From: Promethearchaeota archaeon | GTDB taxonomy: Archaea; Asgardarchaeota; Lokiarchaeia; Sigyniarchaeales; SOKP01 | DNA: 64,000 bases | Assembly: GCA_016839705.1 (NCBI GenBank) | Contig: JAEOTR010000016.1 | Coordinates: 73,556-137,555, forward strand | Direction of reading: 5' to 3' | Position numbers and translations under genes: made by a program | Notes under the pieces: generated by a model | Database searches by the model: none | Seen by the model: the letters and a program-made list of their open reading frames with translations, nothing else | What the model was told of the DNA's origin: nothing | In this document: in pieces, positions 62,277 to 64,000 of the stretch | Layout: each line of letters begins with the position of its first letter | Position numbering within the stretch: position 1 is the first letter of the stretch

Positions 62277-63644
62277 TTATTTTTGAGTAATTTGCTTATA
62301 AGCTTTTTCAAATCTCTCAACAGCAGAGATAATATCTTTTGTTTCTGAGCCTATGGCGGCATTCATAACTATATACGGGGTTGTATAATTTTCACAGCAA
62401 GTGCCAAATGATTTTTCCTTGGGATTGTAAACCCGAGGACCTGTTACACGTAAATTGTATAATGCTCCACCCAGAGCATATAGTTGTTCTGCTTTTAGGG
62501 TTTCTAAAGATAAAGCTACTGCTACAGGATTATATACTTCTAGCAATCTCTCATTAATTTTTTTAGCTACTTCTGATAATTTTTCCTCTAAAATTTTTCG
62601 ATTTTGTTGTTGTTCCTCAATCAATTTTTGATATCCACTAATTCCTAAGGAAAGCATAGAGATCAAGAAATTAACTACTGGTGTAGCGGAAGCTCGTCCA
62701 GCATATGCTTGGCTGATTTTATCTATGCTTTCATTATTAGGAGATGCAATCAAAGCACCCCCAATGGGAGTAAGAAAGTTTTTGTCAGTTGATTGAATAA
62801 TTGCATCAACTCTCCCGGCGTCTATTGCCGCTCGTATTAATTTCATCCATTCCGGGCTTTGAACTCCATAGGCATTAATAATAATATGAATAAGACCTTT
62901 ATCTTGAGCTAATCTGCTGATTTCTTTGAGATTATCATGTTCACGTGGGGGGAAAAAACTAGTTAATGATATAATAGCAAAACAATCATCGTCTAGGCTA
63001 GATTCTATGTCTTCAATTGGGATTCTAACAGCATCCCCCTGAATCCTACCTTTCACAATTTTAGTTTTTAATCCCATTAGATTTATTGCTTTTAAAAGTG
63101 CATTATGGTCGATTTGTGGAATTAAAACAGTTCTCTTATTTTCTTCTTTGGCATCATCGGTTCTTTGCCTTAATGCACCTAATGTTAAGGATAAAGACAT
63201 ACCTGTGCAAAGTGGTGTTATAATAGCTTTTTTTACATTCGGTAAACCAAAATTTCTTAAAATATCACGAGCCAAATAATTTGAGATTTCATACATAATT
63301 GATCCACCAGGCGCTTTGGGTTGTGGTGCTGTTAAAAATCCACTTCGTCCTACTCCATGGCAAAATCCTGCTGATGTTTTCAAATGCAGTTTTGAAGCGA
63401 TTCTTGCCTCTCGTTCTCCAACTCTTGCCGCATTGTTATCTTTATCAGTATCCATATTTGAAAGGGTTAGGAGTAGAAATTCAATTTGTTCATCACTCCA
63501 CGGTTCTTTTGGTACACTCTTTTGCTCAAATAAGGTCCTTATTGGTTTTACAAAATTATTAATAACAATCTGCCCTCTTTCAAGCATATTTTGAGGGATA
63601 GTAGAATTTTTAAAAAACTCGCTTATTTTATTAAAATCAACCAC
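62277..63644 (-). CDS. spcS: O-phosphoseryl-tRNA(Sec) selenium transferase (SepSecS)
   Basis: VGEREARI, HGVGRSG.L.APQPKAPG, TGMSL, NAYG, QSTDKNF (PLP lysine), YAGRAS; adjacent to tRNA-Sec. Confidence 0.95.
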   Translation of the reverse strand: MVDFNKISEFFKNSTIPQNMLERGQIVINNFVKPIRTLFEQKSVPKEPWSDEQIEFLLLTLSNMDTDKDNNAARVGEREARIASKLHLKTSAGFCHGVGRSGFLTAPQPKAPGGSIMYEISNYLARDILRNFGLPNVKKAIITPLCTGMSLSLTLGALRQRTDDAKEENKRTVLIPQIDHNALLKAINLMGLKTKIVKGRIQGDAVRIPIEDIESSLDDDCFAIISLTSFFPPREHDNLKEISRLAQDKGLIHIIINAYGVQSPEWMKLIRAAIDAGRVDAIIQSTDKNFLTPIGGALIASPNNESIDKISQAYAGRASATPVVNFLISMLSLGISGYQKLIEEQQQNRKILEEKLSEVAKKINERLLEVYNPVAVALSLETLKAEQLYALGGALYNLRVTGPRVYNPKEKSFGTCCENYTTPYIVMNAAIGSETKDIISAVERFEKAYKQITQK

Positions 63645-63873
63645 TCTACATCACTATAACTTCATATTAGAATTAATTTTTATACTAAGTAAGTAAAGTA
63701 AATAAAGTAATTTTTCAATTAACTTTTTTGGTATTTTATGAAAATCACACATGAGTTTATTTTAGAAATCTTAATTTAAAGACAACCAAGAATAGGGAGA
63801 AACTTGATTTCAATTGGATGAGATTATAAAAACTGAAAGAAATGGTTCAATTCTTTTGGGAAAAAAATAAAAA

Positions 63874-63999
63874 TGGCGGCCCTCGAGGGGAATCGAACCC
63901 CTATCCCTCCGCAGGATAACTGGGTTTGAAGCCCAGTGTCGGAGACCACTTATTGTTAGAGATCTAATCGATCTAATCAAATTCCAACCGTCAAGGGCC
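63874..63999 (-). tRNA. selC: tRNA-Sec(UCA), 9/4 fold, with a 33-nt intron (63950-63982) in the D-stem
   Basis: 9-bp acceptor GGCCCTTGA/TCGAGGGCC, 4-bp T-stem, 7-bp D-stem GTTGGAG/CTCCGAC after splicing, 6-bp anticodon stem with TCA, long variable arm, G73, encoded CCA. Confidence 0.93.
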
Positions 64000-64000
64000 A

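Follow-up and report, generated by a model that had tools for sequence, protein, structure and literature searches.

A tRNA-Sec gene lies at the end of the 64,000-nt stretch of DNA analysed here (the window), and its D-stem is interrupted by 33 nt. The locus raises two questions: is this insert an intron whose removal gives the organism a working tRNA-Sec, and by what route did it arrive? The host belongs to Lokiarchaeia (genus Loki_b32), with Promethearchaeota as its nearest named relatives.

A Lokiarchaeota tRNA-Sec with a 31-nt T-loop intron has been published (Mariotti 2016, PMC4989117; Santesmasses 2017, PMC5330540), and a review calls the T-arm intron the only archaeal tRNA-Sec case (PMC9499178). 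Valentin-Alvarado 2024 (PMC11291895 Supp. Data 4) also tabulates introns in tRNA-Sec, three for Atabeyarchaeia and one for Freyarchaeia; these genes were found by Secmarker with low scores (35-47), and the table gives intron counts without positions. Non-canonical BHB tRNA introns are known in Thermoproteales (Yoshihisa 2014, PMC4090602). A preprint (10.64898/2026.10.13.758758) reports that D-arm introns are common in Asgard tRNAs and are missed by tRNAscan-SE, that no splicing has yet been shown in any Asgard cell, and that the route of intron arrival is open, which it calls the central open problem; it gives no tRNA-Sec positions and mentions neither homing nor LAGLIDADG. Our literature search found no paper on a D-stem intron in tRNA-Sec and none linking LAGLIDADG genes to Asgard tRNAs.

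The tRNA-Sec gene of the window and its D-stem intron

Deletion of 63982-63950 leaves a 93-nt molecule that folds into a 9/4 cloverleaf and is called tRNA-SeC(tca) by ARAGORN (Table 1). The spliced form has a 9-bp acceptor stem, a 7-bp D-stem with a 4-nt D-loop, a 6-bp anticodon stem, a long variable arm, a 4-bp T-stem, G73 and an encoded CCA. Folding placed the D-stem and its loop solely in the molecule from which the insert had been removed (pair probabilities 0.99-1.0). Among 918 single deletions tried, only this one gave a perfect 7-bp D-stem with a 4-nt loop; four others gave 6-bp D-stems. At the junctions, a BHB can be drawn with a GTTG/CAAT central helix, in which all four pairs form, two 3-nt bulges (GA|A and AA|G), and outer and inner flanking helices of 2 bp each. 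The identity of the gene, the extent and register of the intron and the dependence of the D-stem on excision, all proposed in the initial annotation, were thus confirmed. The structure does not arise by chance: four intron-less genes of relatives stand 1 nt from the spliced product, and 28 more differ from it by 2-3 nt. We identify the gene as an archaeal tRNA-Sec(UCA) whose D-stem holds a BHB intron of 33 nt.

Table 1. Features of the tRNA-Sec locus in the window and LAGLIDADG genes at related loci. Sprinzl positions follow our own numbering.
Feature	Location	Strand	Source
tRNA-Sec(UCA) gene; 126-nt precursor, 93-nt mature form, CCA encoded	63874..63999	(-)	window
5' exon, 17 nt; from the acceptor 5' strand through Sprinzl 15	63983..63999	(-)	window
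BHB intron, 33 nt, Sprinzl 15/16, within D-stem	63950..63982	(-)	window
3' exon, 76 nt	63874..63949	(-)	window
Exon strand (GTTG) of BHB central helix; doubles as D-stem positions 10-13	63985..63988	(-)	window
BHB central helix, intron strand CAAT	63952..63955	(-)	window
Intron segment TCTAAC; could form a non-BHB hairpin with exon GTTGGA, competing with the BHB	63955..63960	(-)	window
Anticodon UCA	63927..63929	(-)	window
T-rich run right behind CCA; probable terminator	63861..63873	(-)	window
SepSecS, 455 aa, GTG start 229 nt past the tRNA	62277..63644	(-)	window
Two-motif LAGLIDADG, intact, 305 aa, then tRNA-Sec with 15/16 intron	L308:878-1792	(+)	metagenome contig
Two-motif LAGLIDADG, intact, 301 aa, then tRNA-Sec with 15/16 intron	L309:166-1068	(+)	metagenome contig
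Broken two-motif LAGLIDADG gene, between reductase gene and tRNA			Loki_b32 (G055), G063
LAGLIDADG 3' remnants upstream of tRNA			G059, G103

Generic finders miss the gene, as had been anticipated. ARAGORN made no call on the unspliced gene or on the window as a whole, and Rfam gave no tRNA-Sec match in the window at the gathering score (RF01852, 40.4 bits against a cut-off of 47). An ARAGORN "SeC" call on contig C18 was a false positive inside a protein-coding frame resembling MetRS.

The gene stands directly upstream of SepSecS on the same strand, as annotated; the latter was identified by PF05889 (E 1e-113) and by TIGR03531 above its cut-off. The T-rich run separates the two genes, and a shared transcript is only putative. 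The gap between them (63645-63873) is 229 nt in length, against 18-50 nt in most relatives, and in the sister genome G093 and in G103 it holds a gene of about 293 aa on the opposite strand.

The assembly, 93% complete, breaks at the tRNA-Sec gene, which lies 1 nt from the contig end; several relatives' assemblies likewise break there. The end of contig C16 overlaps contig C87 by exactly 127 nt (window 63874-64000), that is, by the tRNA gene and one base. The tRNA-Sec on C16 was for this reason rejected as a second copy, and the assembly graph probably branches at this overlap, owing to a second strain or an element at the tRNA. C16 adds the upstream region, in which an aldo-keto reductase-like gene ends about 10 nt before the tRNA-Sec and EFSec lies about 4 kb upstream on the opposite strand. 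A second, intron-less tRNA-Sec would have weakened the case for this one, and none was found in the 93%-complete assembly; the gene is the only assembled copy, a statement limited by that completeness and by the break at the gene itself.

The published Lokiarchaeota gene resembles this one in class, in its archaeal 9/4 fold with a 7-bp D-stem, in the shortness of its intron and in an EFSec gene that lies on the opposite strand a few kb upstream; it differs in that the window's gene has its intron in the D-stem, at 15/16, and none in the T-loop. The Atabeyarchaeia and Freyarchaeia genes are likewise Asgard tRNA-Sec genes, with one to three introns. At the tabulated Freyarchaeia coordinates (L336, G277 C1:810415-810536) we found an insert in the D-loop, at 19/20 by our reading, as opposed to the D-stem in the window, together with a T-loop insert; the latter extends beyond the tabulated gene end, and the table has one intron only. 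The non-canonical introns of Thermoproteales and Asgard tRNAs are also alike in being D-arm BHB introns with many separate gains that standard annotators miss. The D-stem intron of tRNA-Sec is one more site of a known kind.

Precursor folding, probable splicing and proposed use of the tRNA

The family offers a record of which intron bases are kept. An intron follows the same base (15/16) in 47 family genes, with four central pairs in 45 of them and three in two. The variable central pair is C-G in 41, U-A in three, U-G in three and C-A in none, although these sequences are related and not independent. U-A occurs in the window, in its sister G093 and in G029, which belongs to another genus, while the intron interiors vary (29-34 nt). 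In six genes (L068, L080, L085, L086, L097 and L122) the intron lies one base earlier, at 14/15, and all four central pairs form in a correspondingly shifted BHB register.

The predicted fold of the window's own precursor is at odds with this picture. ViennaRNA, which leaves enzyme binding out of account, did not favour the BHB: the competing hairpin was better by 5.4 kcal/mol, a gap wider than in any other of the 53 D-intron genes (median 0.5), and the central pairs had an ensemble probability of about 0. The sister precursor showed neither a competing hairpin nor an energy gap. One could suppose that the insert is never spliced, and that either the tRNA works with a hairpin looped out of its D-stem or the gene has become a pseudogene. 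When the other arms were kept fixed, the looped-out fold reached -45.7 against -43.7 for the BHB fold, the window's BHB is the weakest of the 53, and an archaeal PSTK deprived of its D-stem-binding domain retains reduced activity (PMC3035459). We nevertheless regard this supposition as highly improbable: covariation between exon and intron preserves the BHB, including the U-A swap of the window's lineage, the bulge registers are constant at four different sites, all arms of the tRNA are intact, and the selenoprotein genes have been retained. It is mainly the covariation among the 47 genes that leads us to read the insert as spliced.

The host genome encodes candidates for the enzymes required. 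RtcB is present, and a 197-aa EndA, whose gene is on C56, has A. pernix EndA as its best PDB match (E 1e-34). The host EndA aligns K44-P-R46 of the Crenarchaea-specific loop, which enables cleavage of a D-loop BHB (PMC3241643), and would therefore be fit for D-arm introns. The intron of the window is very probably spliced by EndA and RtcB.

The Sec set is likewise encoded: SepSecS, an EFSec-like gene (selB profile, 235.6 bits, under the cut-off of 242.25), a PSTK-like gene (E 1e-42, under the profile cut-off) and UGA-containing SelD and MvhD. Two SelD and three MvhD genes carry UGA at Cys-equivalent motifs. PSTK, SelB/EFSec and SelD, which the initial annotation had suggested looking for, were in this way all located, the first two as PSTK-like and EFSec-like genes. 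In the host genome (G000), two SelD genes stand in tandem (C5:4909-7060; L245, L246), both with UGA in a GU.CK motif. Given a single tRNA-Sec copy, the full machinery and the UGA codons in SelD and MvhD, the earlier proposal that Sec insertion in this organism depends on splicing gains support.

The preferred reading, in which we have high confidence, is that the gene is the organism's working tRNA-Sec, interrupted at a non-canonical site by a protein-spliced intron of the ordinary archaeal type; the same confidence extends to the joint claim of a real, single-copy gene and its splicing. In the precursor, GUUG of the D-stem 5' strand would pair with CAAU of the intron to give the BHB, a pairing that the sequence and the covariation display and that is presumed to form in the cell. 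EndA would cut at GA|A and AA|G and RtcB would ligate the exons, by analogy with these enzymes in other archaea. The 7-bp D-stem could then form. Serylation, phosphorylation by PSTK, conversion by SepSecS and delivery by EFSec constitute an established route, along which the spliced tRNA would be charged and brought to the UGA codons observed in the SelD and MvhD genes.

Intron states and apparent allele movement in the family

We examined 161 genomes and recovered 124 full tRNA-Sec genes in the family. The expectation that introns in tRNA-Sec would be exceptional proved wrong here: 67 of the 124 genes have an intron, 51 of them in the D-stem, and a T-loop case and tabulated multi-intron genes had already been published. 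Four sites are used, namely 14/15, 15/16, 37/38 (anticodon loop) and 59/60 (T-loop). Intron-less genes number 57; the others have 15/16 and T-loop introns (33), a 15/16 intron alone (12, including G128, which is cut by the contig end inside a T-loop intron), 37/38 and T-loop introns (11), 37/38 alone (2), 14/15 alone (5), 14/15 with a T-loop intron (1) or a T-loop intron alone (3). D-stem and anticodon-loop introns never occur in one gene (0/124), while each does pair with a T-loop intron. The 15/16 intron is found in 10 of 13 genera, and in the Prometheoarchaeum-side families of the order every tRNA-Sec gene that we recovered is intron-less. The tRNA-Sec adjoins SepSecS at 109 of the 124 loci. 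Within the family, 56 genomes exceeded the Rfam tRNA-Sec cut-off, none of them through a D-intron gene.

Contig LJUH01000039.1 (L173), deposited as "Chlamydiae bacterium SM23_39", carries a Lokiarchaeia-type SepSecS with a double-intron tRNA-Sec and is probably misbinned. The bin G042 has two tRNA-Sec genes, an intron-less one beside SepSecS (L079/L248) and a double-intron one (L105/L249) that adjoins heterodisulfide-reductase-like genes at a contig end and may be contamination.

Splicing could in principle be a regulatory step that tunes selenoprotein synthesis, for instance through the competing hairpin; the single copy, that hairpin and the frequent adjacency of the tRNA to SepSecS would suit such a role. 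We consider it very unlikely, in view of the 57 relatives with a near-identical intron-less gene, the lack of the hairpin in the sister G093, and the 18 or more switches of the 15/16 state along the SepSecS tree, a pattern that a passenger would be expected to show. Since so many relatives manage with an intron-less gene, no special regulatory link between splicing and selenium is indicated, and most likely the intron is nearly neutral, a passenger that selection maintains in spliceable form.

A different question is whether the 15/16 intron was ancestral in the family and then lost many times, with no lateral movement. Its presence in most genera would agree with this, as would the window itself, whose intron is closest to that of the sister (85%), a match from which we take it to have been inherited vertically over at least that step, and whose locus bears no nuclease gene or scar. 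Other comparisons argue against this history, which we judge unlikely. Identical 34-nt introns stand beside SepSecS proteins merely 72-78% identical, whereas G062 and G102 have SepSecS proteins 97% identical and introns only 52% alike. Intron state differs between sister species whose flanks are 88-97% identical. The T-stem exon marker GGAG travels with the introns (25/48 T-intron genes against 1/73 others), and double-intron alleles of different genera have a common foreign leader. In G062 (L084), a stretch 399 nt upstream of the new allele still holds the native promoter and the opening ~24 nt of the former intron-less gene. To judge from these patterns, the intron-bearing alleles look laterally swapped.

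Truncated 5' tRNA-Sec remnants precede the present gene at L084, by 399 nt, and at L100 (G030), by 33 nt, and are scars of allele replacement. As sources of the alleles we rejected two candidates: the window's intron has only 13-14-nt chance matches elsewhere in its own genome, and no IMG/VR contig has the tRNA-Sec pattern or the LAGLIDADG nuclease.

LAGLIDADG genes beside the 15/16 alleles

At six related loci, a LAGLIDADG gene lies just upstream of a 15/16-intron allele, intact in two cases, broken in two and reduced to a remnant in two (Table 1; the broken and remnant genes are at L102, L114, L074 and L077). We call the intact protein LAGLIDADG on account of its Pfam LAGLIDADG_3 match (E 1e-8) and two intact motifs, and not of its weak PDB matches (E 0.04-0.05). 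No such gene was found at the 57 intron-less loci. The association of nuclease with intron state (4/45 against 0/57, Fisher p 0.035) is unreliable, as the loci are related. Neither the window's locus nor its host genome yielded a LAGLIDADG gene with this nuclease query.

Collaborative or intron-less homing by free-standing endonucleases is known in phages (review PMC3984707). The relatives, though not the window, resemble that system in that a conserved gene holds an ORF-less intron and has a free-standing nuclease gene next to it, in flanking markers that move together and in a decaying nuclease gene. The present case differs in its archaeal chromosome, protein-spliced BHB intron, LAGLIDADG enzyme and putative target site, and in the lack of the nuclease gene at the window's own locus. 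We tentatively propose collaborative homing as the means by which the 15/16 intron spreads in Lokiarchaeia. The endonuclease encoded upstream would cut an intron-less tRNA-Sec, the intron conferring immunity; through repair, the recipient would acquire the intron together with linked exon markers and a new promoter; and the nuclease gene would afterwards decay or be lost, as may have happened at the window's locus.

Just as tentatively, general recombination may move the alleles, or integrative elements that exploit tRNA ends may do so; the LAGLIDADG gene would then be a passenger occupying a safe spot, and the intron site would not be its target. Of 28 genome loci of the wider nuclease family, 10 lie beside tRNA genes, where the same detector gave 2.2% for random windows; the 10 come down to roughly five distinct tRNA loci, and intron-less tRNAs, for Ser and Ala, are among those flanked by the family. 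Short-read chimeras at tRNAs are a possible caveat for such pairings. A passenger would also fit the assembly breaks at tRNA-Sec and a different, patchy gene that lies upstream of the tRNA-Sec in G052 and G062 and whose homologues are near tRNAs elsewhere in 0 of 20 cases. Against it stand the restriction of all six close copies or remnants to 15/16-intron alleles and the two different intron sequences, of 34 and 30 nt, among these six loci; also against it are the lack of an integrase in eight longer regions read by ORF starts and of any viral contig carrying the tRNA pattern or the nuclease. The patchy gene encodes 459 aa with an RHH motif (G052, L107:469-1848 (+); a remnant in G062); homologues, most of them with a conserved small ORF next downstream, occur in 17 of 135 genomes. 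It was rejected as a homing endonuclease, having no Pfam match and only sub-0.9 Atlas leads.

The window's gene is an ordinary member of a set of intron-bearing tRNA-Sec genes. About 40% of the family's tRNA-Sec genes (51/124) have a D-stem intron and none of these reached the Rfam cut-off in the scanned genomes, so that surveys of the Sec trait in Asgard archaea probably undercount tRNA-Sec; the statement that a T-arm intron is the only archaeal case (PMC9499178) is out of date. The D-stem site is in itself a modest extension of known biology, and the lead towards homing comes from the relatives. With intact nuclease genes, alleles with and without the intron that are 1-3 nt apart, and replacement scars, the loci of this family make the homing route testable, and, if true, it would be a concrete route of archaeal tRNA intron gain.
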